A stretch of 61,965 nucleotides of DNA, the filler included, from Jimgerdemannia flammicorona (Eukaryota), in assembly GCA_003990765.1 (NCBI GenBank). It is 3 parts of 3 records of this genome, joined end to end, with 100 filler letters (N's around TTAATTAATTAA, not from the genome) between each part and the next. Parts side by side here need not be neighbours in the genome. Positions count along the whole stretch, not along the records: positions 1 to 20,593 come from RBNJ01001642.1; 2 more parts are not named here. One strand, 5' to 3'. Of the stretch, positions 3,413 through 26,486 are shown in pieces. The notes beneath the pieces are model-generated. The model was not told the origin of the DNA, searched no databases, and saw only the letters and a program-made list of their open reading frames with translations. The position numbers were made by a program, and so were the translations under genes. The first letter of the stretch is position 1; each line of letters starts with the position of its first letter.

Positions 3413-6400
3413 GAGAAAGACTGATAAGCTAAAGACAGAGAGGAACCTAGATGTGGTAGGGAATGTGATGAGTATAGAATTGTAGAGTAGATGACTATTC
3501 TTTATGAAAAAGCATTATTCAATATAAATAGTATAACTAGAATTTGTTCTTTGAATATCAATAGGCTATAGGGAGTAGTAAGGTATCAAAATATCTTTGG
3601 CTGACTAAAGGGATTAGATATAGACTTATTCCTACTATAGGATGTTAGATGCAATGGGGATTTGGATAGTCTAGACTAGACAAAGGAGTGGGGCAGAGTG
3701 GCTATTTGATAGAGGTATGTAGGTATTCTGGTTAGAAAGAGTAAGGGGGATATTGGAGACATTAGACATTAGGGGGGCAGAATAGTATAAGGAGTTTAGA
3801 AGAGGTTGGACTGGAGTCTCTTGAGAATTAAAACATACTATTGTCTAGCAGAAAGAGGGGAGAGAGTGGAATAGATTCAAGGGCTATGAGAATCTGAAAT
3901 ATTGATAGAGGTAGGGATTGACTGTCTAGGGAGAGACTTTAATATAATATAGAATGGAAAGATAGACAGAACTGATGGGGGTAGGGGAATGGCTGATAAG
4001 AGTGGTGGGATGGAGGTCTGAAAGAAAGTTGAATGTCTGGGTTCCTTAGTGGATACTGAGAGACTTGGATGGAGGGATCACAGAGTCTATACTCACTAAG
4101 TAATAGGGTTAGACTCTAGGATTGACTGGATGTTGACTACTGAATGCTAGAGAGATGATATCTGGATATCTTTGGAAACTGTTTGGTGTCTGTGGTCAGA
4201 TCACTGGAGCCTTCTGGGAGAGAGGAGTTTTGGGAGAAGAGGAGAGGAGCCTGGACATTAGTGTATAAATACCTCATTGCTTAGAGAGGCCTCCTTATGA
4301 GATATATGGGTAATGAACATTAGATCCAAGATACTGAGATGGTAAACAAAGAGATTACTAATTAGGAATTGCTGGAGGCAGCTGAAGTCAGATGTACAAT
4401 AGTACTAGAGAGAGGCAGAAAGAGTACATGGTACTCAGAAGAGGAGGTGAGTGAGATAGGCCTTCCAGAGATTGGTGAGGTTGTGGTAACTTGGGCAGAT
4501 CTGCTGAATAATAAGAAGGAGAGGGATTGGAGGGCCCAGCAGATTTAGCTGAAGGTAGAGGAGTTAAAGATATTGCTGAGGTGGAAGAAGGACCCACAGA
4601 TTCAGAGCATAGTGGCCCAGCTGAGGTGGTAGAGATTAGAGAAGAGAGAGAGGCCTATAAAGTATTTGTCTTGCCTTCTGTAAGTAAGGAGAATATAGCA
4701 GTGATGGGAAGGAGTATTGGATGAGGCAGGAGAGCTGGTTGTTGGTACTCTGGTGATTTTGAATCAGCTGAGTATATAGTAGGGGTGATTGTGGAGTAAA
4801 GAGAAAAGGGGGGTGGGGGTGCTAGATATTGACAGACACTTAGAGGACTGGTACCCTGATCTAGCAGCTGGCTTAAGAGACATTGATGCTACTATCCAAG
4901 GAGAGGAGATCTGGTAGGTACTGATGTCAACAAGCTTGGGGATAGTACCTGAAGAGAATGGCTTACTATGGGATTTTTGGAAGAAGATATCAGATATTGA
5001 GCTGATTCTGAAAGAAATGTCAGAGGTATATAATAAGATTATTAGCTCAGGGATATGGATTGGGAGGTAGTGCTTGGGTCTTATGGCTCTGCTATTTAAG
5101 AATAAGAAGAGAAGAGAGAAGTGGAAGAACTGGAGACTGATCATACTTCTAGTATAGATCACAAACTGGTTATGAAGATACTGGTGACTAGGCTGCAAAG
5201 AGTGACTCAGCAGATCCTGGGGGACTGAGCAGAGAAGATTTATTAGGAGATATCTAATCAGGGATAGGACAGTCTGAGTACATGGTATCATCAAGGAGAC
5301 TTATACTGCTAGGATAGATAGAAGGCTAGTCTTTTTAGACTAAGAGAAGACCTATGATAGGGTCTAGTAGGTATGGTTAAAAGGGGTGCTCAAGTATATA
5401 GGGGTCTCTTCTGGAGTCTGATGGGCCTTGATCAGTCTGCTGGAAGAGAGTTGGGTGACTATTATGGCAAATAAGTATAGGGGGTTTTTATTCCCACTAG
5501 ACAGAAGCATACAACAGGGAGATCTGCTGTCACTGATACTGTATACATTATCCCTAAAGCCTCTTTTGGATAGAATTAGGTAGAAGGTAGGGGGGTTGGA
5601 CATTCTGAGGGTTAACTGGAAGGTAGGGGCTTTTGCTGATAATATAGTGGTCAGACTGAGGTCAGTAGAAGATGTGGTAGCTCTGAAAGGTATAGTAGAG
5701 TAGTATGAGGAGTGCTCAGGTATTAAGCTCAACTAGTATAAGTATGAAATGTTGGTATTGGAAGGGGAAATAGTGGGTGGAGATATGATTGGAATAATTG
5801 TCTCTGCAGGCAAGACTATTTACTATCTTGGGATCTACTTTTCAGTATATAGCTTCTTACTTTCTTACAAATAATAGAAACAGTAGTTGATAGAGTGGAG
5901 GAGTACTCTCTTGAGATAGAGTGGTTGGTACATATCTCTAGCAGAGAGGGTGACTATACTGAATATATACTGGCTACCTAAGCTGTGATATCTGAGATAC
6001 TACTTGGACTTTCCAGTATAGGTGATTAAGAGATTACTCTAGGACCTAGATATAGGCAGTATGATGGAGTTAGATTGACTGGGAGGTGTTGACCTTAGTA
6101 GTAGACTGGGGAGGCCTAAGGCTGGTGAATTTTCCCAAGCATCTTTATTACTTGAGAGTATGGTGGCTGAGACAAGCTAGTGAGCTAAGGGGTGGAGAGT
6201 GAGTTTCCCTCTTACAGAGGGTGTGGGAGGCCCAGTTCTCTCCCTGTAGTATAACTGGAGATTTACTATCTCTGGTAACTTTGGAGAGAAGTCAGAAGAT
6301 ACATTATAGGAGATTTTAGTAGAGAGTGGTTGATAGAGCTCACCATATTGGTCTTCATTGACAGAGTGATGAGGGAGAGGAGAAATGGGGACCCCAGATA

Positions 6401-7060
6401 TAGAGATGAGTTTGTCTTCTATTGGACAAGATAGCTATAAATGACTTCTGCTTAGAGGATGGTATAGAGTATCTTCAGAAGTAGGGGAGAGATCTATGAC
6501 CCAAGATATAGTAGAGAGTGGAGATTGGTGAGAAGTAGGACTGGAATAATATTTGGTTATGGAGCAAGCAGACAGTGCAATGGATCTCCCCCAAGTTCTG
6601 AGTGGCATGGTGAAGACTTTTACAGTACAATGTTATATTGAATTATTAGTCAAGTCACTTGGTAGAAGGAGATCCTCAGGAGTATAAGAAGTATCTGAAT
6701 GTTGGGCAGGAGAGAGGAGTGGTATAAACTTCTAAATATTGGCTTAGAGAGTATAAGATATTGGGGGACTTTTGGAAGATAATTGAGATATAGTTGAGAG
6801 TATATTCATCAGGGCTAGAGATAGGAGTGAGGTGGGGTGACCTCCAGGAGAGGCTAGTAGATGGGGTGAAAAATGAGTAGTTGACTTTAGGGTGGGTACT
6901 GGCAATTTGGATAGGGCTTGTAGGATATTGGCTGTATATATTTGAAGATAGCAAATAGCTGACTTTTGGGGTGAGAGTTATTAGATGAGAGTGGCTGATG
7001 ATGGACCTTCTGAATGGGTGATGGAGAGAGTGAAGAGCTGGGGGTATGGTGCAGGGGAGA
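3413..7060 (+). mobile_element. Decayed L1/Tx1-like LINE: ORF1 end plus near-complete ORF2 (APE endonuclease, RT, C-terminal Cys/His region)
   Basis: Collinear with 29813-31392 and 26961-28601. It has the remnant EN start (LFFEYQ/LNING-like, ~3545), GRDFN, QGDLLS, and WKVGAFADN (~5617-5643). Many stops. Confidence 0.9.
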
Positions 7061-7474
7061 TGAAGTACAGGGGAGGTGGGAGGATTTGAAGGATAGATTG
7101 GTAGGGGGGATTGGGAAGGAGTGGCTTACTTTGGGTTGGGCTTTGGCTATTTGAGTGGGGCTGGCCAGTTATTGGCAATTTGTTTTTGAGGATGGGAGGA
7201 GACAGGACTTGGGAGACTGGTTGCTATGGTGGCATAGGCTTATGGAAGACACCTTAACAGGCTGGTGGCTTGGTTGGGGGCTGCAGGGTGGTCAGAGGTG
7301 CTACTTAGTGGAGAAAATTTGTGGGCAGAGTGGGGGGAGAGTCAGAGTAGTTGGGGAAAGGGTGATTTTTATTCATGAAGAGGTGGGGAGGGGCCCCCCT
7401 ATGGAGATTGGGTAGTGGGTGGGGATGATGTATACTTATTCATAGACTGGTAATAAAGGCAGAGTCCAAGTGAC

Positions 7475-7545
<71 letters not shown>
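7060..7545 (+). mobile_element. Younger 5'-truncated LINE 3' fragment with ~68-nt poly(A)
   Basis: Repeats the region just upstream in less decayed form and is close to the reverse complement of 26487-26920. Ends AATAAAGGCAGAGTCCAAGTGACTAT plus an A-tract (7478-7545). Confidence 0.85.
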
Positions 7546-7550
<5 letters not shown>

Positions 7551-7662
7551 GCTCTCTTAGAGAGATTGAGTAGGAGGTCAGATAGTTGTATATTATATAT
7601 TATATTAATATAGATTGGTTTGATAATAAATGCAAATGTCTGAGTAACTATAAAAAAAAAAA
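7546..7662 (+). mobile_element. LINE extreme 3' end with poly(A), probably the displaced tail of the 3413-7060 copy
   Basis: AATAAA...GTCTGAGTAACTAT plus A-tract at ~7652-7663, the family terminus. Confidence 0.7.
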
Positions 7663-7899
7663 ACTATATTCTAAAATACTATCTCTCTCAATAGATCTCC
7701 TAAACCTCCTTTTGTTTTCAAACTTATCTTAATATCTATTATCTCTTACTTATCTTAATTCAACTCAATACTCAATATCTCCTTATATATATACTATACT
7801 TCTCTCTACATTATCATAATATTCTTTCTCTTATTAATTTAATTATTATATAATCAGTAAATATACTTAGTAATGAGTGATCATATGACCCAGTGATGA

Positions 7900-8557
7900 T
7901 GTTACAATCCAGTAGCATATGATAAATATAATAATGAGATATAAATGATAAGAACAATGTAGATAAATGATACCCAGATTAACTCCAGCAATTGGCACTG
8001 TAGTAATCACTGCAGCAACTGAATATTATCTAACAACAAACAAAGGTTACAATTATAAATCTCATTCATAGTTACCAAATTAGTCACTCATACTTAGTCA
8101 GAAATTATAAACTAACTTGTATAAATACCCCCCAGTTTCTATCTGAAATAAAACAGATTTAGTTCAGTCCTTGATACAAGAATCAAATACCCCCTCCATA
8201 CACACACATTCTTCTAAGTCTTAGTAATAACACCTAAGTGACTCTAGTATTTCTAACTAAACTCCAAAAGTCTAGCTAACTTCTACCATAACTGAGACTG
8301 GTATATAAATTCCAAAGACTTAAGTAAACTCTTTATTGAATCTGATTTCCAAGGTAAATTCAATCTGTGCACAGCAAAGAACAAATCTCTTATAACTATA
8401 GTTATTAAAAAGAGTACTATTGCTATAACTACTTTCAAGTAAGTGCTTCCTCATACTGGAGGCTTCTTGGTATACTTGTATACTAAGTCTCTAAGTAATA
8501 CCTTATTTCTTTAATTATCTAAAAGATAAGAGAGGGGTAGAAATAAGAGTTATTATA
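7900..8557 (+). repeat. Putative 5' LTR of the second Gypsy family
   Basis: TG start, TATAAATA and AATAAA motifs (8120-8152), PBS immediately downstream. The local motif ACTTGTATAAAT.CCCCAG is shared with the solo LTR at ~35860-35880. Confidence 0.6.
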
Positions 8558-8643
8558 ACTTGGTGGTAGTGAAATTACTAAGCCAAGATAGTGTCAAGAA
8601 CATACTCTTGAAAAGTTGGAACAAGACCAACCTTAGACAGAAG

Positions 8644-9010
8644 TAGTACTCCCAAAATGAATATTTGAATCAATTCAAAGTAGATATATATGGTATTTGA
8701 ATCAAATTGATTCAATTCAATTCAAACATTGTTTTGATTTCCAAATTAGAACACAAATGTTTACCTCAATAACTCTATGAAGTTTTATCCGATTTTGGTA
8801 ATCTTGGTGTTATTGGAAAGGGATTATAGAGAGCCTTCCAAGGACACTAGTTTCATTAATATTGGATGAAAACTCGTAGAGTTATTGAGGTAATTATTTG
8901 TGTCCTTATTTAGAAATCAAAATAATGTTTGAATCAAATCAAATCAATTTGATTCGAATACCATATATATCCACTTCAAATTGATTCAAATATTCGTTTT
9001 GGGAGCACTA
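8644..9010. mobile_element. 367-bp palindromic hAT-type MITE with 8-bp TSD
   Basis: Termini TAGTACTCCCAAAATGAATATTTGAATC / GATTCAAATATTCGTTTTGGGAGCACTA. The arms are complementary almost to the centre. Exact direct repeat GACAGAAG at 8636-8643 and 9011-9018. Confidence 0.93.
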
Positions 9011-9130
9011 GACAGAAGTAACTCCAGAATTCCCAAGGAACAAATCCATGAACCAGAGCCCATCTAGCATTAGCCACCAGAACTAGGTAGTATCAGGAAA
9101 ATACAGACCCAGGGCTATATCAGCTTCTGA

Positions 9131-9859
9131 TTTTTTTTTTTTTATAGTCACTTGGACTTTCTTTATTAATACTCCAATCTAATCTCATAATAATACACTG
9201 ACCCCCACCCCTACCCAATCCCCCTGGGGGGTTCACTCTCTATTCTATTATAATGAAAAACTACTACCCCTTTACTATCTCTGCCCACCTACTACTTTGC
9301 TTGCAGATCACTTCTACTAGTTGGCAACAGTATCTACTCTGTAGGCCCCATCCTACCCACTACTCTGATATAATATCCCCTATTAATCTTTTTCATCTTA
9401 GCTATCTCTCCCTCTTACTTAACTACTGCTCCTCCTTAAATACATAAAGCTAATGGCCAGCTAATCCTACCTATACTGCTAATACTCACCCTAAAGTGAG
9501 CTATTCATTATCTATACCTCCTACAAACCTCTCCCTCAGATCCTCCCAATGACCTCTCTCCCCATCTGCTCTCCTTCTAATACTGAGTTAATCATCTATT
9601 TCTATCTAAAAGTCCCCCAGAACCTCACACTCTCTCAGCCAATGTTCTGATATTTGGACAAAACCCTCCATCTGACCCATATTGTAGCACTTCTCACAAT
9701 CAAAGAGCCCTCCATCTACCAAGTACCCAGAGTGGAAATTCAATATGACATTCTGTCTCAGCATTCACTACTATGCTCTCTGGAACTTAGGGAGAAACCA
9801 CTGCTATACTTCAGTACTCTATGATCAGACTTCTGTCCAGTCTCACTTCTCTCTAATCT
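9131..9859 (-). mobile_element. 5'-truncated LINE with poly(A) and 16-17-bp TSD
   Basis: Poly(T) then ATAGTCACTTGGAC at ~9131-9157. TSD CTATATCAGCTTCTGA(T) at 9115-9131 and 9860-9876. Confidence 0.92.
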
Positions 9860-12800
9860 CTATATCAGCTTCTGATCAATAAGACATACAGAGATCTATA
9901 TGAGGTCTTTAAGAACTACCACCCAGGCTTTAGGAATGTAAGCAGCTATTGCAGATTCTATATTATTATCCATAATTATATGGAGGTTACTAGAACTCAA
10001 GAATCTACTACTGCTACTATCTAGGAAATTTTAAACTATATCTCAATATCTTCTTCTGCAGCAAGAGTAGTAGCAGCTGAGTAGATTGCATTTGATAGTT
10101 ATCATTATACTTCTATCTGAACCTCTCTCTACTACTGGCTTATTGTATACTATACCACTACTATATCAAGATATGAGAACAAACAGACAGATCACTCACT
10201 CTCTATTACTGATCAAGAAGTAGATCCATCTATTTAGCCAGAATCTGATATCTTCTTTGAAGAACAAGAACACACTATCTCATCAGGAAAGAGAGTCAGA
10301 TGAAGACTCTACAGGATACTAGTCTGATGATAGCCAATAAGGAACAGCAGGCCAAGGAATTTACTAAGAACTTACAGGTCAAGAAGATCAGACCCCAGAA
10401 CTAATCCAGGCATTTATATAGAGATTTGGTTTACTAACTCTTACAGGACTTTTTGATCTGATCTTTGGAAATCAAGTAATCCTAAGTTATGTAGTACTAC
10501 AACCTCATCAGACAGAATAGTCTTCAGGAGAATCTACCCCTACAGGCCCACTATTAGTAGCTAATACAATAGTAGATACCAATATTCAGGCCCTAACTGT
10601 CCAGCTAGCCACAATAGTCGAAATAGTAGGATAATTGTCAAATAGAACAAACTAACCAAGACCTTGAGAATTTCTACTTTTAGTAAAAAAACAATGACAT
10701 TGAATCCTTCATAAATACAATAGATATATAATACTGAGCAAATCAATAGAATGATAACCATTTATCTACAGAGATGCTTAACAATAATAGAGATAATACT
10801 CTTCAACAGTTGTTTGTCACATTAGTAATATAAGTGGAAATAGTAGTCATATTCTTTACTAGAATAACAGCCAAGTTCTGGTACACTCTAGAAGAATACT
10901 CAGTACCTAAAAAGACTGTCCTCAAGTCACTAGACAGACACCTGGCCAAGCCAGACCAGGTTGGGATGACTATATAGTAGGCTTAGGACCCAAGACCCTA
11001 CTATTGACCAAATTCTGAAATATAGTCTATATATAAGAAACTTGGAATAAACTAGCCCAGATGAAGTTCCACAAGAATAGTGAGGAGGACCTAGAAATCT
11101 TTACTACTAAGATGGATACTTACCTTAAAACCATAAGACTTACTTATCAGAAAAATAATTTAGTCATCAATGATATTAGGGCCAACTATCTTTTTGCAGT
11201 CCTATCAGACTGACTCACTTGGAAGATTAAGGAATAAGGCCTCTTCCAAGGATGTCTCCACTACTCATAGTGCTTTGCTTAGATATAAAGATGAGTCTGC
11301 AAAATCCTTGTTGTACAGACCCTACAAAATCCAGAATACAAGAAAGATAACCAAGTTAGAAGAAATCCCCCAGAATGACTAAAGAAATAATCAGAGAAAT
11401 GACCAAAGGAACTAGTGAACCCCCAGAGGACCCAGACCTCCCAATGAGGATAAAAAGAAGCAGCTCTGTGAAAAAAAATTATACTTTATTTGTAAGAAGG
11501 CAGGACATATCTTCTTCAAATACCCTGAGAAGAGAAACAAATCAGATAAACCCAATAACCAGAACATCCCCATTATTGAAAAAGAACCAAAAAAGAAAAA
11601 TTCCAAGAATGTTATTAAAGTATAGAAGATATGGTATAAGGCTATCATTTTCACTAAGACCTATCCTACTGATACTAGATATGACCTCTACAGTAGCCAA
11701 GACCTCACTATTCCACCAAGTACTAATACTATAGTATATATAAGAATTATAATACAAGCTCTCAAAGGAATATATATCTACCTTGCTGAGCAAAAGTAGT
11801 CTGGCCAAAGAATTCAATATTGGGCTAGGAGGAGGAGTAGTTGACTAAGAATTTACTAGAGAAATCTAGATCATTTGTGAAATTTGGGAGATACCTCATT
11901 TGAAGTCAAAGTAGGCTAAAGAATTGCCTAAGTAATTATTGAAGAAATCTATCAAGATCTCACTATTGCAGAAGTCCCCAAGCTCTCCCAGACAGACTGT
12001 GGTAAGAAAGAGTTTAGATTAACTAATAAACCTCTCACTCAAAAGATTACCACTATAAAGAAAGATGATGAAAACTGTTATAAGAGAATTGTAGATAGTT
12101 ATGTATCATGTGGACAATACCCTCATTCTATCTGAATATACTATATAGAACATATTGGCAAATGCTATACATACCTCTCTAAAGTTTTCAAAATCCAATT
12201 CAAGAAATACTAAGTCTAATAGACTGAGAAATTCAACCCAGACCACCCTCCTTATGAAGGATGGAAAGAGACTGACTTTGAGAAGACTGATAGCAATTGA
12301 GATAATGAGGATAAAGTACTCAATACCATCAAGAAGGAAGACAGTTGCATTAAGTTTATAGGCCAAGTTTACAGATAGAATGTCAATGTCTTACTAGATA
12401 GTAGTACTACTAAAAACTATATTAGTACCAAGACTATTAAGAGGATTGGAGCCCAAAGTAGACCAGCTACTGAGAAAAGAAGTATCACCTTTGGTGATGG
12501 CAAGACTACACCTTTGATCAAAATCTATAAAGACCTACTGCTCAAGATTAGCAAATACTAAGAAAAGTTTAATTTTAGCATTATAGATCTTTCAGAATAA
12601 GATATTATCCTAAGAAAGACCTGGTTGACCCAGTATAACCCAGGACCAATGAGGTTAACTTAATCTATAAAGGTAGAAAAATCACCCTGTTATCTCAGAA
12701 GAGTACCAGCCATCAAGAGATCAAAATCATTTCAGCAATTCAGATGAAGAGACTCTTCTACAAAAAAGAGAACACATACTTCATCTGCACTATATAAGAA

Positions 12801-13589
12801 GTTACTGAAACCCCAAGTAGCTCAGTTCTACAAGAAGCTCAAGAGCTATTTAAGAAATTCTAAGATATATTTTAGGAGCTCAGAGGACTTTTACCCAGCA
12901 CCAAATCCAATATGAGATTGATCTTATTCCAGGATCTGAACCTCCATACCAGAATATCTACCAGCTGGCCCAACCTGAACTCAAGATCCTCAAGGATGAG
13001 TTGACCAAACTACTGGCCCAAGGATATTGAATCCAGCTGTTCTCTATTTGGAGCCCCCATCCTATTTATCAAGAAGAAGGATGACTCCCCACAAATATGT
13101 ATTAACTACAGAGCTCTCAATAAGATTACCATCAAGAACTAGTATGCCTTGTCTAGGATTGATGAGTTGTTACACCAGATCTTCAAGGCCAAGACCTTTT
13201 CCCTACTGGACTTGTGAAATGATTACCACCAGATCCTCATTGATGAGAAGGATGTTAAAAAGACAGCTTTCCAAACATGGTTTGGACACTACCAGTTCTG
13301 AGTCATGCCTTTTGGCTTGATCAATGCTCCAGCAACATTCCAATACCTGATGAATGATATCTTTGGACCACTACTCAACATTTGTGTCCTTGTATATATT
13401 GATGATATACTAATCTACAGTGAAACAGTGGAACTACACTACACCCACCTCAGGCAGGTCCTGACCCCTTCTGTGAGAACACCAGCTCTATGCAAAGATT
13501 AGCAAGTGCAAGTTCTATCAAGACCAGATTGAGTATCTAGGACATATCATCTCTATTGAAGGCATCAACATGGATCCCCGAAAGGTACG

Positions 13590-14472
13590 GACCCGCCAAC
13601 TCTGGGCTCCAGGAGGAATTCGTGTTCACTATCGCACCGACTGCTCCCAACCCGAATCCATCTCCCAGAACATCCTCGAGTGCCCTATCTGCTCAAACAA
13701 CTACCCCGGTGATGATACATTTCACTTAGCTGCAAGCACTCCTTCTGCCGCTCCTGTGCAGCATGGTACATCCACAATGCCATGGAGTCGTGCACTTTCC
13801 CATACCTATACCCATGCTGCAAGTCCTCCGAGACCTGAGATCCCACAGCACAATGATCCTCTCCATTCTGAGTGAAAAAAACCAAGTTGTCTGGTTGGAG
13901 ATGGAGCGCGAGCGCAGCATCACAAGCGACAGTGCGGTCAAGTGCGTCTATTGTCAGAAGGGAAAGTGCGAGAAGCCTTTGAGGCCGGCGTCGTAGACGA
14001 GACGGAGAGGCTGCCCCATGTGTCGTGTCCGTATTGTGAGCACGATTGATGGCTTTATACGTGGCATTAGGGCATCTTCCGCGCCAAATACCAGCGGTGG
14101 AAGACCAATAATGGGAAGGCAGACGAGCTGACAAATAAGATCGTGTTGGAGAAGGAGTATAAACGGTGTCCAGGCACATATATATATATATCACGTCTGT
14201 GTGGTAATGGTCTTGTTCGGCATATACTGATGGCGTTTGTCCTTTCTTTATTTTATTTATATTTTATTTGTAAACAGGCCCTAATTGCAGATAGATCATT
14301 GAGAAGACTGTCGCTTGCAATCATATGAAATATACCCAGTGCGAAGCACACTTCTGCTATCTCTGCGGTAACATTCTTCTTCACCAAGTCCAATGCGAAG
14401 CGTGACATTGACACCGCTGTTGCCAGCCATTACAGAGGTTGTGCCTTGTTCGACATTCTGAGCAAGCAATGA
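13590..14472 (+). pseudogene. RBR-family (RING1-IBR-RING2) E3 ubiquitin ligase pseudogene fragment with one intron
   Basis: Stitching frames gives RING1 ECPICSNNY...LSCKHSFCRSCAAWYI...FP..PCCK and IBR CVYCQKGKC...VSCPYCEH...WH*G. RING2 reads KRC|PNCR*IIEKTVACNHMKYTQCEAHFCYLCG across a GT-AG intron (14168-14277, branch-like TACTGAT). The tail is GCALFDILSKQ*. Several frameshifts and in-frame stops (e.g. TAG 14292-14294). Confidence 0.9.
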
Positions 14473-15139
14473 AATGAGGGAAGTGTGGCTGTCGGTGTTT
14501 ATTGTGTTTTTATTTTGGGTTTCGCCTGCGTAGAGATTCATCGTGTCTTTATATATCTGTGGAATAAATCGCCGACACTGCTGCTGTACCGTAAACTTCG
14601 AACTGGATCAACATGACGATAGACTGTTGTGCAGGACAGAGAATGCATTGCTTACCTCGCCATATGCGTAGAGCTACGTGTCGTACTTCACCCCTGTCAG
14701 TTTTGTGACTTCGAAATTGCGGTGCGGACACAAGCAGTTAGGTACGTGGAAATAGACCTTTACCGCCATTCTTATCCTTTCTTATCGAGGTCGCATGCAT
14801 CTTCGACCGCGGTGTTCAAACCTTAAATGCCTTAACGAAGTTATCACTTATTCATGCATGTACCAATATCAATATGTCAATAGCGACGGCTTTGGTTGTT
14901 GTCAGTGATCTTCTTTTGGCCAACAAAAAGGACGAACGCTTCAGAGCGTATTTATCATGTGGAAGATGCCATACCTTTCGAGAGACCCTCTGTTATATGT
15001 CGTGGACTTGAAATGTCGAGAGGATGATTAAGGTTATGTTGGAAAGAAGCCTGCTGGTTCCAAAAATAAGTATTGCGAATAGTTTTTTTTTTTTTTTTTC
15101 CGAGCCTGCTTACTCACTATTTTTTGACCGGTTCCTTAT

Positions 15140-15199
15140 GCCAGTCTTGGTTGCTTTTAAACCAACTGATGAGCCCCTTGAGCGAGGGTGAAACCGGTC
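15140..15199 (+). ncRNA. Type III hammerhead ribozyme (copy 1, partly eroded)
   Basis: GTC (15144-15146), stem I TTGGTT/AACCAA, CTGATGA (15166-15172), stem II GCCCCTT-GAGC-GAGGGT, GAAA (15190-15193), stem III CCAG/CCGG with one mismatch. Confidence 0.85.
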
Positions 15200-15782
15200 T
15201 ATTCTAGGGCATCTCTATTCGGTGGCGTTTACACATATTTTATATATATGTAATTTATTTATAAAGAATAAAAATTTAAATCGGACGCATCAAACACGTG
15301 TGTTGTTGATTAAGCTTCAAGGACCATTACTGTAAAGTGCCATTTGTGATCTTCCACTATTCTCATCATAGATGGCTCTTCGGTATATACTACTCAGCTT
15401 CTTCAATACGGGCAGTTCTGTAATGCGGCGGTGCTGGCTTTCGTCATTCTTGCTTCGCTCAGGCGGTCTTTCTCTGTCGTTATCGAGGGGTGTTTGTCAG
15501 CAACTGTTGCGTCTTCATAGTGTCCTTGCCAGTTACTATCACTATTGACTAGTCGGCGTTTGAAATCGCGTTTATCTCAGGCTGCTTGTTGTTATCATGC
15601 AAGAGGTACTCTATTAACACTTAATCTTATTGAAGAAGGTGTGTTGGCTTGTGGGTTATGTGGGAATGTGGGTTTGTGCAGTGTGGTTGTGGGTTTGTGT
15701 CTTGCGTGGTTGGCTCATATGGATGCGAAACAGAGTATAATGGATTCGATACTCACCTCATGCATCTCTCCCTCCTCTACAG

Positions 15783-16635
15783 ATACATACACAGATGGAG
15801 GAGACTCTTACGCCATATGGTGAAGGCGCTTCCCGCAATGCCATCTCGCACTATATGGTGAAGATGCTTCCGCGCCTCCTGACCAAATACACCAAGGACG
15901 TGGCACTTATTGCCAATCGTCATTATCCCGCAGCTCATGAACCTCAAAGTTTACCTTGACCTCTGCATACTCAAAGCCTATGAGGCCTTTCTAGGTGACA
16001 TGTTGTATCATGTGGCCAGGTTGAGGGAGGAATGTGAGGGGAAGGTTAGGTTCATCTCTGTTTTTGTGCGATTGGTGGGTGGTCATTATGGATTACGACG
16101 TCGAATGTGATAAGGGAGAGTTGGGGTACGAGGAGGAAGAACAGGTGCGGTTTTATATTTGCTTTTGTTTGCGTGTTGCATTTGTGGGTTTCTGGATGCT
16201 AATGAATTTTTAACCCTCCTCAGATTGTTTCAGACATCAACACTCTTCGCCAGTATCTCGTGTGGAGGTGCCATGTCATCCAGCCTGGGGAGCCGGGCCA
16301 CAACAGGCTATCGAAGAGTTTAGGGAGCATTGCGACTGGGCTCTCGACGATTTCACCAAACTTACCGTCGGGAATGGGGTCTGGGTTTGGAGGCAGCGAA
16401 GAAGGTGGTGGAGGTTTTTTTTTTTTTCATCGCGGTGGGAAGGTGAGAATCGGTTAACTGACATGTTTGTGGGCACCCTCCTTGTCTTCCTATTCTTAGG
16501 CATTCAGGGCCCTCGGCGAACCCACTGGCACTTCTTGACCTGTTCCAGTAGCCCAACTCGTCAAACATGCAACAGCTGTGCTTGACCTGCCTGGTGTCAT
16601 TCTGTAGGATTCATCGAATAGCAGATAGTTTGGTC
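15783..16635 (+). pseudogene. SCC3: Cohesin subunit Scc3/STAG (Psc3/Rec11-like) internal fragment, with introns, frameshifts and internal deletions
   Basis: Reconstructed peptides: RNAISHYMVKMLPRLLTKYTKDVALIA / IVIIPQLMNLKVYLDLCILKAYEAFLGDM; KGELGYEEEEQ|IVSDINTLRQYLVWRC; AIEEFREHCDWALDDFTKLTVG; LEAAKKV|AFRALG; GFIE*QI. They resemble successive HEAT-repeat segments of STAG/Scc3, recognised from memory of the family. GT-AG introns at ~16145-16223 and ~16408-16499 have branch motifs. Confidence 0.78.
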
Positions 16636-17189
16636 ACTACGTTGCACAGTTACGACGCAATGGTGATGCGGGCAGCCGAGGGGTCAACTGTTCCTTTTAT
16701 GGAGATCAGTCAGTGTAGAGATAGGTGGTGAGGTCTCAACCCGATGTTTGAGAATATATCTATAATAACTTAGCAATGGCCTAAAGATCGAGTCATTCAG
16801 GTGAGTAATGGACCACAAGGCATTTGAACGGGAAACCCGTATGAATATATATATAAAATATATTATATACTATATATTTTCTTAGATATTATATTTATTA
16901 TATAATATCAATGAGCATGAAGACATTAGGAGTAAAGACGCAACACAGGGAGCGCAAATACGAGCACCATGTGTAGTCTTTGGGTGTTTACTGCTCGTTT
17001 TTTTCGAGAGCTCTCCCATCATGGTATAGCAGCGAGTTTACCAAACTCCAAGGTTACAATGTTACGACTATACGAGCAACTAGCCACCCGAACTATACTA
17101 CATCACGCACTCGCCATGCACACTATGCACACGCAACCGGCGGCTTCGACAATATCCCGGTAGACAATCTCACGCACACATCCATCCAT

Positions 17190-17770
17190 TCAAGCGACGA
17201 CATTAGCATTAGCAACCTTGTCGGCGATGCAGCGTGGTTATTGTTGACATAGTAAGCCTGGTCGCAATCCTCGCACAGGTTGGCGGCGACATGATTGCAA
17301 TTCTCATAGGTGACATTGTAGCATTTCTGGTTGGCGCTGTTGCATGCAGCGTTGTAGTCGACCATGCAAGGAGCGCAGGCACCGCAAGCGCCGAGTCTGT
17401 CATAGGCCCCCCAAGTCATAGGGGTACCCATACCCATAGCCGCCCCATTGCTTGTTGTGAACAGGGTCATGTCACGCCTTTTGAGGTATCCGAGGCCGGC
17501 GCAACTGTAGTCGCAGGCTCCAAGACAGCCATAAGGGAGTTGACCACAGGGGAAACCGCAAGCACCGGGACTGTCGAAAGGGAGTCCGTTAGCTGCAAAG
17601 GCACCGCAGGGGAAACTGCAAGCGCCAAGACCGTCGAAAGGGAGTCCGTTAGCTGCAAAGGCACTGCAGGGGAAGCAGCAGAGTTTGCACGCATCATCGA
17701 GACAGCGCTCATTCAGGTCGTGAGTCCGGGCCTCGCTGGTGGGATCGCAGATGCTTAAACACATCGTCAT
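17190..17770 (-). pseudogene. Cys/Gly-rich, probably secreted repeat protein with Kex2-type dibasic site; frameshifted at both ends or 5'-truncated
   Basis: ORF 17123-17770 has 20-aa repeats (FPCxAFAANGLPFDxxGAC), a KRR site and an Asn/Cys-rich C-terminal part. A shifted frame gives ASA-IP before TSEARTHDLNER (signal-cleavage/propeptide-like). Another shift gives a natural end ADKVANANVVA* (stop 17190-17192). Confidence 0.65.
17545..17680. repeat. 60-bp coding tandem repeat, ~2.3 copies
   Basis: GTCGAAAGGGAGTCCGTTAGCTGCAAAGGCAC.GCAGGGGAA recurs at a 60-bp period. Confidence 0.9.
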
Positions 17771-18203
17771 TCTTCTTCTGCACTATAACCGGATTCGAAT
17801 GCTGAGCTGGCGAACGTACCTTGCACCAGGTCTACTGAAATGCAACCTGGTAGGCGCCAAAGGGGGCGAATGGCAAATTTGCAGCCAGGCGGTCTCTACA
17901 TTATAATAAAATCCCACAAACAATCTGAGGATGAGTGGAGATCAGGCCAAGATGGTGAAAGATGGCGGTGGGTAGTTCTGGCTCTGACTGACCTTATTAA
18001 CTTTGGCGTCCCAACCGATATGACGAGAATGGCTGAACCCACATCGCTGCCAAAAGACCCTTGTAGCAGCTGGTACCGACCCGAATGTCGCATTGAATAG
18101 TTGTCGAGTACTGGGTATTTCCTGTGGATGCCAAAGACAAGGACGATTGGACTGTGCAGTTATAATGCCATTGCCCTCCACCTCATTGAGATGAGGTGTC
18201 GCG

Positions 18204-18350
18204 GGACTCGAAGGATGTTGACGTGAACGTGTGGACTCAAAGAATGTTGACATGAACACGTGGACTCGAAGAATGTTGATGCAAATGCGCAGAGTCAAAG
18301 GATGTTGACGCAAACGCGTGAACTCGAAGGATGTTGACGTGAACGCATGG
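18204..18350. repeat. 29-bp minisatellite, ~5 copies
   Basis: Unit approx. GGACTCGAAGGATGTTGACGTGAACGTGT, contiguous and diverged. Confidence 0.85.
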
Positions 18351-18551
18351 ATCTTGACACGAATGGGTACACAATGTTCTAGACAAACAAAAAATAAAAC
18401 TGTCAACAGTAGGCTTTGAAAAGGTAGTCCAAACTGGCACATTTTAAAGATCGCTTTATTCTTTTAAATAATTTTATTTCTAAAATATATGTATTTATTA
18501 CAAAACGGTTGGCAACGACCCAGTTGGAATCTTGTTGGAATCTTGTCGGAA

Positions 18552-18617
18552 ACGGCGGGTTTCGCCCTTGCTTAAGGGGCTCATCAGTTGGCTGTAAAAG
18601 CAACCAAGACCTGCCGT
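18552..18617 (-). ncRNA. Type III hammerhead ribozyme (copy 2, core intact)
   Basis: Minus strand reads ACGGCAG-GTC-TTGGTTG-CTTTTA-CAGCCAA-CTGATGA-GCCCCTT-AAGC-AAGGGC-GAAA-CCCGCCGT. All core nucleotides are present, with a 7-bp stem I, a G-C-closed stem II, and a 9-position stem III with one A-C mismatch. Predicted cleavage is between 18608 and 18607. Confidence 0.92.
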
Positions 18618-18880
18618 GGATGCAAGTAAGCTCTCACTAGAGAGACTCCATTGCAGAGCCACTGGCGGCCCAAGAATGTGAGTGTTTCGGTCAAGCATAA
18701 ACAGTACTCGAAGTGAAGAAATAGTTTAACTACTTATCTTAACAGTGAAGAGTTCAACCTGCCACGGGCGTTCGATATATTTATCAGGTGTCCGATTTGT
18801 TGCGCCATATCATTGGTGGTGACGTCTTTCAGATCATCATCCAATTAAAATAGCACGATTTCGATGACATTGTACAAACC

Positions 18881-19083
18881 AACGCCATTCATGCGTTTCA
18901 GTAATGTCATAGGATATGGGCGAATACCATTCATGCGTTTCAGTATATGCCATAGAGTATGGGTGAATACCATTCATGCGTTTCAGTATACGCCATGGAA
19001 AATGGGCAAATACCATTCATGCGTTTCAGGAATGTCATAGAATATGGGCAAATACCATTCATGAGTTTCAATGTATGCTATAG
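18881..19083. repeat. 42-43-bp minisatellite, ~5 copies
   Basis: Unit AATACCATTCATGCGTTTCAG(T/G)A(T)ATG(C/T)CATAG..TATGGG(C/T)(G/A). It is followed by a 22-bp duplication GGGGTTGAGA(T/C)GACAGGT (19083-19122). Confidence 0.9.
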
Positions 19084-19274
19084 GGGTTGAGATGACAGGT
19101 ATTCGGGGTTGAGACGACAGGTGGTAGAGTGCGATCACCATAGAATACGGCGAGAGAACCCATTAAATAAATAGATTAAATGATGAGAGAAATTGGGGCA
19201 CTTCATCGAAACGCAAATGCAAAATGCAGTTCGTAGAGTGAAATGCATGTTAGTTGTGACATTCTAGCCCCTGA

Positions 19275-19394
19275 AACAGACTAACGCCCAACGCCCAACG
19301 ATGGACTAATGCCCAAGACAGACTAATGCCTAAAACAGACTAACGCCCAAAACAGACTAACGCCCAAAACAGACTAACGCCGATGCCCACTGTG
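19275..19394. repeat. Array of ~17-20-bp AAACAGACTAACGCCCA repeats ending in CACTGTG; possible DNA-transposon subterminal region
   Basis: About six copies of CAGACTAA(C/T)GCC, ending GCCCACTGTG at 19385-19394. Confidence 0.7.
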
Positions 19395-19833
19395 TGGCAG
19401 CACGTTCAAGTTAAGTGGAAGAAGGCATGCGAAAACAGTGTTAGCTAGCAAGGAGTAGAGAAATGTATATATAATAAATATGAGGATCGTGGAATGAATA
19501 AAGGTAGTTCTTATCGGAATTTAATTGCTCAAGTGGAAAGACAGGAATTCGGAGGGACCAGCAAGGGAAGTACATAAAGCTAAGCTATATTGGTTCAGCC
19601 AGTAACTACAATTGATGTATTTAGTACATTGCCTATTTATTTATTTACATATTTATTTATTACATATTTTCACTCTAGGAAACACGAGGTCATGTCTATA
19701 TGCAAGTTTGATTCTTGCTCGTTTTCCCTTTGGTGAGACGTGCCTCGTGTTTCGAACGCCTCTATTGTGATGTCATATGGCGAACAAACCGCTCAAAAAA
19801 TCGTGACTATCGAATTTGTTAAAATCACTTGAA

Positions 19834-20849
19834 TAGTGCTCTGAACAAGTCAGTTCAAATTGGTTCAAATTGTGATGGTTTCTGATTCGAACAATTCAAA
19901 TCAATTTGAATTATGACTGCTCTAATTCAAATCTTCAAATTTGATTTGAATATCTGATTCAAATATCTGATTCAAATAGGAACCAAATTGCCCATGCTCC
20001 ACTCTATCACATGATTTACTATCATATATAAACAGAAGAATGTGTATGCGAAACACTTCTATACATAAGTATATATACATTATATCAATGGCAATAAGTC
20101 AGTCATCAATATTTCGCAATACTGATGATTTGTACTTCAAGTCAGACTTCTTTAAACACTGTTTAGACTTCTTTAAATAGCATTCTATACTATGCTCCTT
20201 ATTCTGAAGTTTAGTAATATTATACCAAAACTGATAAAAATAAAGTCTCTTACAAATATTACAGGTAATTTGTTTTTTTTTTTAAAAAATAAAAATAAAA
20301 CTTATAATACTTAGATATATTTATAATTTGCTTAATATATGTGTAAATTTTTTAAAAAGTATAAGATATATGATAGTTCTATTATAAATATAATAAGATA
20401 TATAAAAGCTCAATATTTAGATAAAATAGAATTGAGTATAGTATTAAGTAAAATTGATATTTCAGTTATATATAATAAGTAGATGTTCTATCTCTTATTT
20501 TAGTATAGATTTAAAAATATATCTTTTATATATCTGAAGTTTTTCTTTTTTTTCTGAAAAATAATTCAGCTATATATCATACTTTTTTTTTTTNNNNNNN
20601 NNNNNNNNNNNNNNNNNNNNNNNNNNNNNNNNNNNNNTTAATTAATTAANNNNNNNNNNNNNNNNNNNNNNNNNNNNNNNNNNNNNNNNNNNNGATCAAT
20701 CCGGATGGATCAATCCGGATGGATCAATCCGGATCAATCCGGATCAATCCGGATCAGATCACGAGACCAATCCGAGTTGATTCGAATCCATCACATGACG
20801 AATCTGAATCGAATCTCACCTGAATCAACTCCATTCGTTCGGAGCACTA
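19834..20849. mobile_element. hAT-like non-autonomous element end(s) on either side of the contig linker
   Basis: Left TAGTGCTCTGAACAA (19834) and right TTCGTTCGGAGCACTA (ends 20849) share the TAGTGCTCC terminus with the 8644 MITE. Subterminal GATTCGAA/GATCAATCCG repeats. No matching TSD, so these may be two elements. Confidence 0.6.
20594..20693. other. Artificial contig linker / gap
   Basis: N44-TTAATTAATTAA-N44, which gives stops in all six frames. Confidence 0.97.
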
Positions 20850-22519: not shown

Positions 22520-23827
22520 CAAGATGAATCCCTCACTTTTAAGCTGAAAAACAAATAACCCCACAACAACTACCCTGACTACAAGAGTCACCCCTGCAAG
22601 AATTCAAGACAAGATGGAAATACACCCCTCCACATTCTATAGATATACTACTGAAGAGTTAATCCTGACCTTCATTGAAGACTTTGAACAATTCACTGCC
22701 ATATGAGCTCCTGGTGTAGATGTACAATTGGCCCTTCTACCAGTCAGCCTCGAGACAAGTTCAATACAACCACTATTGCTAATAATAGTGCAGCCAAACT
22801 TGCCAACATAAAGGCCTTCCTCAGAACAATATACTATACTGAAGAGATCAAGCAAGCTCTCAAAGATCAACTCAACACTATCTGCCAGAGACTCAGTGAA
22901 GATCCCAACTCATTCTATATCTGAATCTGCCACCAGATTGTCCTGGCTAGCTATGATGATGCCCTCAAGGAACAAATAGTAGATTCAACCTTTCTCAAAG
23001 AAGTTTACCCTGAAATTGCCCTAGCAATCTGGTTTACTCCAGCTACACTGACCCTTGATCAGAAAGTGGTCTTTGCACAGAGATATTGGACTGCCAGACA
23101 CCCTGCCAAACACTCAATGGAGAAAATAACTGGCATCAAGATGGAGCCATCAAAACCAACTAATATTATACCTGCCACAGTTGTAAACAGACAACCATCC
23201 CCACCTACCCCCAAGACTGCCAAAGCTGACCCAGTGGAGGAACTCACCAAGCAGTTCACCAAGATGACTGCATACCTTGGTGATGTTGTTAGAGAAGTCC
23301 AAAGTGCTAACAGGAGACCAGTGCAGAGATTTGCAGCTGCTACAGAAGAACACAATATCACATGCTTCAGATGTGGAGAAGAAGGCCACTATGCAAAGAA
23401 TTGTATGACCAAAACAAGACACAAAGCCCAACCAAGCAATGCTAGCAGAATCAGAGAACAAACTAATGCAGTAGTCATCGAGAAGATTGGCAATACTGAT
23501 GATGAAGAATACTATGAGGAGCTTGAATTCTACCCTATTACTAAAGGTACCAGAACCTGGTCCAAGCCCTATGACAAGAAGAGCAACAGCAAGCCAGTTG
23601 GAAGACCAAAGAAGACCCCAGCTGTCACTATTCAAAGCAAGACTCAACCTGAGGAGATTGATCAAGACATGGAGTTAGATGAAGCTGCCCACCAAATCAT
23701 TGAAGGCACTACTCCAGTCTCAGAAGAAAGTGAAAGCAAGAAGGAACAGAAGCTGTATAAGACCAAGATCTACCAGTATGATATCTACAAAGACCTCAAG
23801 GAACAGAAGCTACTTTTGGACAGCTAG
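22520..23827 (+). pseudogene. gag: Gag with CCHC zinc knuckle
   Basis: CFRCGEEGHYAKNC at ~23363-23404. Upstream capsid-like segment is interrupted by stops. The 5' boundary is approximate. Confidence 0.85.
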
Positions 23828-23853
23828 CTGAAGTCCCTGCCTTCAGATAGCCA

Positions 23854-24330
23854 TTGAGAGTAGGACTTGCAACTACTGTCAAAAATCAAGAGTACAAGAT
23901 TGTAGAAGCTCACAATGCACAGGAAGAATCTGAAAACTCAGGTGAAGAATCTGAAGACCAGTGCAAGACATCAGCCTATACTCTATATCAGATCAAAGAC
24001 TGTATCTTTGATGTCATCATTGATACTGGTGCTGGAGGATGCCTCATGAGCAAGAAGGCAATTGACTGCCTAGGCTGGGGCATTGAAGAGTCCACCAAGA
24101 TAGTCTATGTTACAGCAGATGGTATATAAGCTACTCCCCTTGGCAAAATCCAAGAAGTCCCCATCAAGATAGGAGGAGCTACCATCCCAGTAGACATGAT
24201 TATTACAAGTACCACCAACTATGACATTCTCATTGGTAACCAATGGCTTCACAAGGCCAAGGCCATCATTGACCTCAATGCCCAGAAGATGCAGATCAAC
24301 TATAGAGGAAGAAAGGTATGAGTCTCTATC
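23854..24330 (+). pseudogene. Retropepsin aspartic protease
   Basis: FDVIIDTGAGGCLMS and YDILIGNQWL motifs. Confidence 0.88.
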
Positions 24331-24679
24331 AATGTCTACAAAGGAGTCCTACCAGATATAGAGGAAGGAGATGAAGAGGACACAGAGGTCTTCATGCACT
24401 TAGTGAACAAGAATAAGAATAAGATACCCAAGCTCACAGATGAGCAGTGGTACAACAAGGTCATCAATAGCTATGCCCCTCAAGAAAGATGCCCCCATGG
24501 TACTAAGATGTACTGCTCTGAACACCTGAATGACTGCTGGTCCTGTATCAGTGAAGTTAGGAAAATCTGCCAACAGAAACATAAGCAAGAAGCTATCAAA
24601 GCAAAAAGAAAAGCTGAAGAAGATGACCAGCCCCCAGAGCTTCAAGCTGACAGTGATGATGAGGAGGAACAAGAATCAG

Positions 24680-25110
24680 ATATCATCCTCAAGGTCAAGA
24701 AGTTCTACTCTGAAGCTAAGATCCCAGAATACAAGACTGAAGGAGCCATAGGAATGGACCTTACCAGCATTCAAGATGCTACTCTCAAACCACAGACCAC
24801 TACCCTACTTGGCACTGGAATTGGAGTCAAGCTGCTAGAGAACTATGCCAGAATTATCAAGACCAGGAGCAGTCTGGCCAAAAGCGAAATCTCAGTTAAA
24901 GGAGGAGTAATTGACTCTGATTATACTGGTGAGATCTTTCTCATAGTTAGGAATCACAACCCCACCACCCCATTTGAAGTCAAGAAGTATGACAGGATTG
25001 GCCAGATACTGATCCACGAAATCAAGAAACCCAAGATCACTAAAGCCATCAAACTCATTAAGACCAAGAGAGGAGAACAAGACTTTGGATCTACTGGAAG
25101 AGGAGCCTAT
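24680..25110 (+). pseudogene. dut: dUTPase domain within pol
   Basis: All five trimeric dUTPase motifs are recognisable: AIGMDL, RSSLA, GGVIDSDYTGEI, RIGQIL, RGEQDFGSTG. Confidence 0.93.
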
Positions 25111-25199
25111 GCTGTCACTAAGATTACTGAACTTGAATACAAGAAAGACAAGGACCAGAATAAGCACACATATACTCTTAGAGAAAACTTTCCCCTGGA

Positions 25200-26486
25200 A
25201 GAACAACTTCTCAAGATCCTGCACTAGAATGAAGGAGTACTTGCTACAGACTTCAGAGATATCTACAATCAAGAACCTAAGTACTACTACAAAGTTAACA
25301 CTGGTGATACCAAGCCCATCTACCAGAAAGCCAGACCCATATCACCTGCCTACAGAGAATGACTGTGAGCAGAACTTAAAGAAATGGAAGAAGCCAGAAA
25401 CATCAAGCAAGCTATCAGTCTCTGGGCTTCACCTATTGTTCTCACCCCAAAGAAAGGAAGCAAGCCTCAATGCCATTATCAAGAAGGATAGGCAGCCCTT
25501 GCCAAATATTCAAGAAATCCTTATCACCTTTGGAAGCAAAGCCAAATACTACACCACCTTGGATCTGTTCTCAGGCTTCTATCAGATTGATCTCACTCAA
25601 GATACCAGTAAGAAATCAGCCTTTATCACACCTGATGCCACCTACATTTATCTGCGAATGCCATTTGAAATGTGCAATGCCCCAGCAAGTGTTTAGTGAA
25701 TAATGAACAGAGTCTTCAGCAATGAGATTAGAAAATTGCTCTTTGTCTATGTTGATAATATGATCATCTTCAGCAACACTGCACAGAAACATGTCAATCA
25801 TATACAGCTAGCCCTTAAGAAGCTCAAGGAGCATGGCCTTTATATTAAGCCCAAGAAATGCAAGTTTGCAGCTCAAGAAATCATCTATCTAGGACACCTC
25901 ATCAACCAGACTGGAATCCATACAGACCCTATGAAGATTGAGGCTGTTGAAGCCTACCTGAGACCCAGAATGACTACAGAAGTCCATGCCTTCCTTGGAC
26001 TGGCCAGCTACTACAGAAGATTCATCAAAGGATACTCCAATATTGTAGCACCTATCTACAAGCTACTAAAGAAGGAAACCAAATTCAAATGGACCAAGGA
26101 ATGCCAAGAAACCTTCAATGAACTCAAGACCAGGTTGACCCAAGCATCTATCGTCAGAAGACCAGATTAGAACCTAGAATTTATCCTGCAGACAGATGCG
26201 AGTGCTATAGGACTTGGAGCAGTCCTAGCTCAGAAGAAAGATTGATATGAATATATCATCTTCTATCAAGCTGAGGTACCCATAGAGCAGAACAGAACTA
26301 TGAGTCATGTAAGCTCAAATGCTTAGTAGTAGTTTGGGCAGTAGACAAGTTCCACTACTATCTAGTCAGGAAATACTTCACTATTCAAACAGACCATTCT
26401 GCTCTTGCCTGGTTATTCCACACACTGAACCACAAAGAAATATATGTCAGATAGATATACAGACTGCAAGAGTATGACTATACTGT
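25200..26486 (+). pseudogene. pol: Gypsy RT and RNase H (RNase H resumes at 32363 after the LINE insertion)
   Basis: LDLFSGFYQI, MPFEMCNAP, YVDN (degenerate YxDD), FLGLASYYRRFI, LQTDASAIGLGAVL. NADALSR follows at ~32391-32411. Confidence 0.92.

Follow-up and report, generated by a model that had tools for sequence, protein, structure and literature searches.

A 66-nt stretch on the minus strand of the window (by which we mean the whole 61,965-nt stretch of DNA analysed) has been proposed, in a sequence-only reading, to be a catalytically competent hammerhead ribozyme. We ask whether this motif (18552..18617, hereafter HH-R) is a genuine ribozyme and, as our analysis points to a single multi-locus family of which the ribozyme appears to be the sole conserved part, what carries or keeps that family. 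We lean toward the reading that HH-R is genuine and probably active, and that it belongs to a dispersed type III sub-family encoded in the genome of what is likely an early-diverging mucoromycote-like fungus. The ribozyme class itself is well known; what is new here is a ribozyme, probably active, from a host lineage not described before, together with its genomic context. The window is made up of three ~20.59-kb blocks joined by N44-TTAATTAATTAA-N44 linkers, and only positions 1-20593 are contiguous with HH-R.

Read directly on the minus strand from 18617 to 18552, HH-R is ACGGCAGGUC/UUGGUUG-CUUUUA-CAGCCAA-CUGAUGA-GCCCCUU-AAGC-AAGGGC-GAAA-CCCGCCGU, with the slash at the predicted cut. The features on which the sequence-only reading had built its case are all there. 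The CUGAUGA (18587-18581) and GAAA (18563-18560) core is intact, in the sequence as in the Rfam alignment. Stem I with loop 1 (18607-18588) has the claimed 7 bp, one of them a U.G, and the claimed CUUUUA loop, while stem II with loop 2 (18580-18564) consists of six pairs, bears a single bulged C and an AAGC loop, and is closed, as proposed, by a G-C pair (G10.1-C11.1). Stem III (18617-18609 pairing with 18560-18552) has nine positions, eight of them paired; the single A-C mismatch that had been described falls at the fourth pair (GGCAGG opposite CCCGCC), and its suggested source, a CpG-to-CpA change, is plausible from the sequence. The GUC triplet also holds, with C17 at 18608, and together with the Rfam alignment it places the predicted self-cleavage site at 18607..18608 on the minus strand, between C18608 and U18607; both the A15.1-U16.1 pair and a non-G at position 17 (H17) are present. 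With this core, the A15.1-U16.1 pair, stems I and II capped and stem III open, HH-R is, as judged from its sequence, a type III hammerhead in the structural sense.

The Rfam family RF00008 (Hammerhead_3) matches HH-R at 18615-18554 on the minus strand along the entire model (positions 1-54 of 54) with 36.1 bits, corresponding to E = 4e-6 in a 601-nt stretch and 4e-4 in the whole window. This is below the RF00008 gathering score of 48.5, and HH-R accordingly falls outside curated membership; the gathering score is a database bookkeeping threshold and stands for no structural feature. At gathering thresholds, Rfam has no match anywhere in the window. At E <= 1 the whole-window scan gives three matches, namely HH-R, a second Hammerhead_3 and a chance-level miRNA match, and no other ribozyme family. 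That the HH-R motif does not arise by chance follows from the E-value, from the related second copy, from relatives found elsewhere and from covariation among them, the last three of which are described below.

For the 66-nt RNA by itself, both the minimum free energy (MFE) structure and the centroid are the hammerhead fold, at -22.8 kcal/mol; compared with shuffled sequences this gives z = -1.86, with 10 of 200 shuffles folding equally well. Alone or with downstream sequence only, the hammerhead fold is the MFE or lies at most 0.7 kcal/mol from it. Adding the upstream flank leaves the hammerhead fold 3-7 kcal/mol above the MFE in nearest-neighbour folding; for a 221-nt stretch around HH-R, the MFE structure is a non-hammerhead fold (ensemble frequency 0.004). 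Upstream sequence may, on these models, compete with the active fold. The models leave out tertiary contacts and co-transcriptional order, and we treat such competition as a caveat for HH-R.

The second copy is a convergent type III hammerhead on the plus strand (HH-L, 15137..15201), recovered by Rfam, by an inverted-repeat search and by blastn. Its RF00008 match (15139-15199, plus strand) has 30.1 bits and E = 0.022 for the whole window, likewise below the gathering score; the Rfam alignment assigns it the conserved CUGANGA and GAA hammerhead core, and its predicted cut is at 15146/15147. HH-L and HH-R form an inverted repeat, 3,344 nt apart in the repeat search, with the two ribozymes facing each other. 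In a sensitive blastn comparison of 14800-19200 against the window, the two are alike over 62 nt (85.5% identity, E = 4e-11), and no similarity between their flanks is found. The repeat search also offered a candidate third copy at 20254-20283, which we rejected as AT-rich sequence only; the family model described below is blank there.

Relatives were sought in metagenome and viral collections, where a strict family pattern had no match. With a looser pattern, in which TCTTGG, CCAACTGATGAG and GAAAC alone were fixed, 20 metagenome and 4 viral loci were recovered. Of the 24, five (L001, L007, L015, L019 and L020) carry the stem II and loop 2 of HH-R, bulged C included, with a C-G to U-A swap in stem II relative to HH-R. 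Since L019 is identical to L020 over 2,872 nt, they represent four distinct relatives. All five are metagenome contigs of low GC (0.35-0.37), and the Hammerhead_3 model scores them at 32-42.9 bits, again under the gathering score; the hammerhead core is kept in every one of the four distinct relatives. In hammerheads, tertiary contacts between loops 1 and 2 give fast cleavage at low Mg2+. Here the window and the relatives have the same loop 2 (UUAAGCAA, bulged C included), whereas loop 1 differs, CUUUUA versus a GCUA type, and no covariation between the two loops is apparent. The family's stem II and loop 2 signature occurs in none of 185,579 prokaryotic species genomes and in no viral contigs.

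We counted base pairs over six sequences (HH-R, HH-L, L001, L007, L015 and L019), omitting the duplicate L020, then L002 (its shorter stem II misaligned) and 17 loci without the signature. Across these six sequences, which represent two lineages and few independent events, 95.3% of 107 pair cells hold standard pairs. Changes on both sides are seen in 5 of the 18 pairs (three in stem III, one in stem I and one in stem II), and all five compensatory pairs fall outside the positions fixed by the search pattern. The covariation score is 0.337, compared with 0.181 +/- 0.036 for shuffled data, and none of 500 shuffles reaches 0.337; in registers slid by 1-3 the score is at most 0.074. The U16.1-A15.1 pair (pair 13/62) is unchanged in all six. 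From the sequence comparison, it is supported that the hammerhead helices have been maintained by compensatory changes across the relatives of HH-R.

A family covariance model (R1) built on this six-sequence alignment gives HH-R 76.8 bits and HH-L 71.4 bits, both being part of the model's training set, and detects in the window these two copies only; the next match has 10.9 bits and E = 0.58. The five relatives score 79-92 bits, and other hammerheads among the loci at most 38.9 bits.

Two small, related public runs of one organism contain parts of the stretch as contigs (shares 0.22 and 0.10). Aligned at a likeness of at least 90%, these show the hammerhead core joined to many different flanks in relatives. 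Summed contig depth, which is no copy number, comes to 2413/2372 in the HH-R bin and 439/644 in the HH-L bin, with neighbouring single-copy bins at roughly 10-40. Bins immediately outside the pair (14603-15004 and 18824-19225) have no contig cover, a gap to which we give no evidential weight. Contigs leave the window sequence at 18558 (7 and 9 records, with an agreement of 0.56 and 0.53), and further loose contig ends lie near the motif edges, at 18561, 18593, 18611, 15122 and 15206. From the summed depth and the loose ends at the motif edges we conclude that the HH-R motif is multi-locus in these relatives. GT..AG joints in the contigs (e.g. 16141->16221) were considered as introns and set aside in view of their 90% likeness, short sides and repeat-rich surroundings.

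Transposon remains fill blocks 2 and 3 as well as the left 13.5 kb of block 1. They include a LINE-type reverse transcriptase (RT) with endonuclease, an LTR element in which gag knuckle, dUTPase, RT and integrase are recognisable, and a Ty3/gypsy-type pol that reads as dead. Positions 1-13500 contain five CpGs; the observed/expected (o/e) ratio is 0.01, 0.19 and 0.10 in the three TE-rich parts, which also have a strong strand-asymmetric GC skew. At ~13571 CpG density rises to normal (o/e 0.83 for 13000-20593 and 0.85 between the ribozymes), which places both hammerheads inside a non-hypermutated block. No tRNAs were found.

These observations bear on an alternative that we consider unlikely, though it deserves serious weight: both hammerheads may be decaying leftovers of a once-mobile ribozyme repeat, untranscribed or inefficient, and idle at this locus. 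HH-L would fit such a description. It has a G10.1.U11.1 wobble and two stem III mismatches, its 3' strand engages in a competing perfect 8-bp pairing with upstream 15126-15133 in the MFE, and the MFE is not the hammerhead; an enforced hammerhead fold is 6-16 kcal/mol worse in every context, which we take as a sign of decay. On these models HH-L looks degraded. For HH-R, the A.C mismatch is compatible with a deamination-type change, and the competing folds with upstream sequence point in the same direction. So does a bias in the contig differences of run X1, where positions with A/T in the window and G/C in the relatives (A>G 34, T>C 32) outnumber the reverse (G>A 14, C>T 8). Idle decay is, however, hard to square with the perfect core and largely paired stem III of HH-R, with helices maintained through compensatory changes across lineages, and with the normal CpG content of the block, unlike that of the adjoining hypermutated repeats.

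The family may instead be carried by something larger than the ribozyme. Each hammerhead could sit in a solo LTR, or its equivalent, of a non-autonomous element whose RNA is circularised elsewhere between same-strand ribozymes, as in retrozymes; we hold this to be improbable. Type III is the architecture of plant retrozymes, isolated motifs in ~300-400-bp units are their commonest plant form, and distant retrozymes are alike almost only in the hammerhead (HHR) and two small boxes, according to the passages of PMC4918200 that deal with them. Upstream of the ribozyme, the metagenomic relatives have ~100 nt in common with one another (L001 and L019 still more), as would be expected of a repeat unit extending beyond the ribozyme, and we saw no convincing coding capacity in their flanks. 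By eye, this ~100-nt upstream box also seemed to lie beside HH-L, and nhmmer flank profiles rejected it: profiles of the relatives' upstream and downstream flanks detect nothing in the window beside HH-L or HH-R, with the best matches elsewhere at E = 0.78 and 5.7. As the relatives' flank is not detectable beside either copy, the ribozyme appears to be the only part common to both lineages, which counts against a larger unit here. Also contrary to this alternative, repeat search and blastn find no direct repeats around or between HH-R and HH-L, and the two lie on opposite strands. A tRNA-Met primer-binding-site (PBS)-like motif is absent from 14-19 kb (7 matches in the window against 6.8 expected), and in L019 the 1.5 kb to either side of the ribozyme contain neither a repeat nor another ribozyme.

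What lies between the two copies is a gene. A Cys-rich ORF of 215 aa (17123..17770, minus strand) was recovered from the ORF listing, phmmer and tblastn, and the HH-R cleavage site is 837 nt upstream of its first ATG (17770), in good agreement with the ~840 nt upstream of a same-strand Cys-rich ORF that had been proposed. A word-indexed protein search with this ORF had no match; phmmer against 1.84e9 representatives gave four matches at E <= 1e-3, the best at 1.1e-8 and none at 1e-10 or below. Three of the four homologues look secreted, with signal peptides, Gly/Tyr-rich repeats, dibasic sites and a repeated Cys/Asn-rich module, the last of which aligns to the C-terminal half of the ORF. In the other direction, tblastn of homologue P0002 against the window returns 17647-17225 at E = 4e-18. 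Homologues P0003 and P0004 are hypothetical proteins of Endogone sp., and the named homologues have 38-45% identity. On sequence comparison we regard the Cys-rich ORF as a real gene, one of a family of secreted repeat proteins that are rich in Gly, Tyr, Cys and Asn and have dibasic sites. From the two named Endogone homologues, the host is plausibly a mucoromycote-like fungus; the TE proteins gave no guide to the taxon.

Between HH-R and the Cys-rich ORF we could make out neither a convincing signal-peptide exon nor an intron, and HH-R may lie in the 5' UTR of this gene or upstream of its promoter. Tandem Repeats Finder places an 11-nt tandem repeat (2.6 copies, 18523..18551) immediately 3' of HH-R in its own sense, and a 29-nt tandem repeat (5.3 copies, 18200..18351), also seen in the repeat search, lies between HH-R and the ORF; the latter is probably non-coding, as its period is no multiple of 3. 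Each ribozyme is followed, in its own sense, by an AT-rich block containing TATA-like and AATAAA strings: ~45 nt beyond HH-R (18441..18506, minus strand) and ~35 nt beyond HH-L (15233..15282, plus strand, picked out by sequence and a weak alignment). We rejected kinship between the two blocks, whose similarity in blastn and alignment is weak and not significant. The last feature of the block after HH-R is an ATG (18442), the start of a 166-aa ORF whose N-terminus is hydrophobic. Among the 20 ORFs of at least 90 aa in block 1 there is no credible Pfam match, and the plus-strand ORFs downstream of HH-L have no Pfam match and contain nothing recognisable.

The gene and the facing ribozymes around it suggest a further alternative, which we rate as rather more doubtful still. 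Here the inward-facing hammerheads would be the ends of a 3.47-kb unit (15144-18610), possibly mobile, that carries the secreted-protein gene; RNA entering on either strand would be cut to a fixed 5' end, and the products would have ~60-nt complementary termini. In keeping with such a unit, a short dispersed motif occurs twice, 3.35 kb apart and exactly inverted, with nothing else shared, and the remaining 58 kb of the window contain no further copy. A TGCC next to each outer edge may be a 4-bp direct repeat (~3-4% chance probability with the offsets allowed). We judged it probably coincidental as a target-site duplication, as the flanks also form stem III; indeed, the pairing of the outer flanks with inner sequence in stem III is something that target-site duplication leaves unexplained. 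The arrangement is, moreover, seen at one locus only, its HH-L end is weak, and the arms enclose neither a transposase nor any other gene for mobility: the seven ORFs of at least 90 aa between 15200 and 18550 have no Pfam family at E <= 0.1. If it were true, it would amount to a new kind of ribozyme-delimited fungal gene unit, made from a bare type III hammerhead dispersing without LTRs.

Least probable by far, and largely refuted, is an endogenised ambisense circular RNA, in which an ambivirus- or viroid-like replicon bearing one ribozyme per polarity would have been copied into DNA. Both strands do carry a hammerhead, infectious circular RNAs typically have the type III architecture in the relevant passages of PMC13725137, and fungal ambiviruses most often contain Hammerhead_3 (PMC10237039). 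Against it, no RdRp-sized ORF or Pfam match lies between the ribozymes, the homologues of the intervening gene are cellular and fungal, the motif is found at many loci with unrelated flanks, the family signature is missing from viral contigs, and the ribozymes are placed upstream of convergent units.

We return to the reading that we prefer, a probably active HH-R in a dispersed type III family. As a minus-strand transcript passes through 18617->18552, stems I and II would fold locally, and synthesis of the 3' strand of stem III would then allow the three-way junction to form. By established hammerhead chemistry, the RNA would then cut itself 3' of C18608. Hammerhead cleavage leaves the upstream piece with a 2',3'-cyclic phosphate end and the downstream RNA with a 5'-OH, the latter predicted here at U18607. 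This downstream RNA would keep the ribozyme body and run toward the secreted repeat-protein gene 837 nt on. HH-L would likewise cut plus-strand transcripts entering from the left, though it looks degraded. As to what carries the family, it may have spread by or within a small non-coding mobile sequence whose sole conserved part is the ribozyme. The most likely role of the pair, we infer, would be to trim or uncouple read-through transcripts that enter the CpG-normal gene block from its repeat-rich surroundings.

If this reading is true, a type III sub-family in an early-diverging fungus and in soil eukaryote contigs widens the known distribution of the class, and could be a genomic reservoir for the type III ribozymes of fungal circular RNA agents. 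The convergent pair, in a CpG-normal island beside CpG-free dead transposons, offers a testable case for ribozymes insulating genes from read-through.

Several known systems resemble parts of this arrangement. R2 and other non-LTR elements have HDV-like ribozymes that free element RNAs from co-transcripts. In prophages, hammerheads flank genes, as described in passages of PMC3088659. As predicted for HH-R, the ribozymes of these prophage and R2-type systems are placed at the upstream edge of a transcription unit and make the 5' end of the downstream RNA independent of transcription start. They act on one strand of a defined operon or element, whereas here two facing ribozymes, predicted from sequence, lie on opposite strands.

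Among DNA-encoded eukaryotic hammerheads, the pertinent passages of PMC13725137 and PMC4209133 describe type I in animals and Penelope-like elements (PLEs). Genome-encoded type III is, in the passages of PMC13725137 and PMC4918200 that address it, essentially confined to plant retrozymes and otherwise a signature of infectious circular RNAs. The literature searched yielded no account of hammerheads encoded in the genomes of mucoromycote fungi. A fungal parallel is Yarrowia lipolytica, whose genome has a multi-copy hammerhead associated with interspersed repeats (PMC3088659, in part). HH-R is similar as a multi-locus motif in a probable fungus; the passages on Yarrowia state no architecture, and the same source, in the sections concerned, gives type I for the vast majority of repeat-associated eukaryotic hammerheads.

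The hammerheads of PLEs, which include fungal ones (e.g. Serpula lacrymans), are described in passages of PMC4209133 as type I, lacking recognisable loop-loop contacts and flanking an RT(-GIY-YIG) ORF, with terminal repeats each able to carry one ribozyme. According to these passages they share with HH-R a genome-encoded, monomerically stable form, a long helix III and an occurrence in fungal repeats. HH-R differs from them in being type III, not type I, and in that no RT lies between or beside its two copies.

In architecture, the nearest kin are the RF00008 type III hammerheads of viroids, satellites and plant LTR-retrozymes, with which HH-R shares the overall layout, the 13-nt core, the GUC triplet and similar stem lengths, as far as these are set out in the passages of PMC4918200 on them. 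The same passages describe plant genomic HHRs as isolated motifs at several loci, as is the case for HH-R. Plant LTR-retrozymes carry the HHR in ~300-400-bp direct LTRs that delimit a 300-600-bp non-coding region, with tRNA-Met PBS and polypurine tract boxes and 4-bp target site duplications (PMC4918200, in those passages). The present locus departs from this plan in several respects: HH-R has a sub-cut-off Rfam score, there are no LTR-like direct repeats and no tRNA-Met PBS was found nearby, the two copies are not a same-strand pair, the host is apparently a fungus, a coding gene lies between the copies, and between this genome and its metagenomic relatives it is the ribozyme alone that is conserved.

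CpG dinucleotides are nearly absent from the transposon-derived parts of the window (1-13570, 20694-41281 and 41382-61965). CpG observed/expected ratios for these three parts are 0.01, 0.19 and 0.10, and positions 1-13500 hold 5 CpGs in total. GC skew in the same parts is strong and strand-asymmetric, reaching +0.4 to +0.6 at 3-7.5 kb and -0.4 to -0.55 at 42-58 kb. Near position 13571, CpG density returns to normal within a few bases, with 13571-20593 on the normal side, and the switch falls inside sequence that is still readable as Ty3/gypsy pol (…GINMDPRKV). Taken together, the CpG loss and the skew look like C-to-T hypermutation that is CpG-specific, strand-biased, repeat-targeted and sharp-edged.

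Two linkers (N44-TTAATTAATTAA-N44, at 20594-20693 and 41282-41381) separate three blocks of ~20.59 kb each, which are probably distinct pieces of the genome, artificially joined; neighbourhood across the linkers therefore carries no meaning. An LTR-retrotransposon fragment on the plus strand (22925-25696) carries the zinc knuckle of gag and, besides reverse transcriptase, a dUTPase domain (E=6e-27), which is an uncommon component of a retrotransposon pol.

The type III hammerhead motif (18552-18617, minus strand) is surrounded by several short tandem arrays, with units of 29 nt (18200-18351), 43 nt (18885-19083) and 17 nt (19304-19381), and a 60-nt repeat (17543-17674) within the Cys-rich ORF that encodes a 20-aa protein repeat. 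In L001, the best metagenomic relative, tandem arrays of ~80 nt (655-859) and ~139 nt (879-1326) lie upstream of the ribozyme, in ribozyme sense. Part of this array region is also present in the related locus L019, a hint that their lineage has a non-coding repeat unit of larger size.

A further metagenome contig, L013, carries both a hammerhead (106-171, minus strand; 38.6 bits with the family covariance model) and a sub-threshold Twister-P5 match (1509-1580, plus strand; 27.1 bits, E=0.029). Three same-strand hammerheads, ~450-900 nt apart, occur on each of three GC-rich contigs: the metagenome contigs L008 (1490-1554, 2198-2264 and 2761-2825, all minus) and L018, and the viral contig L022 (592-656, 1491-1557 and 1945-2012, all plus). 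These hammerheads are unrelated to the family in the window, and their arrays resemble the phage layout, in which ribozymes lie on either side of short gene blocks.
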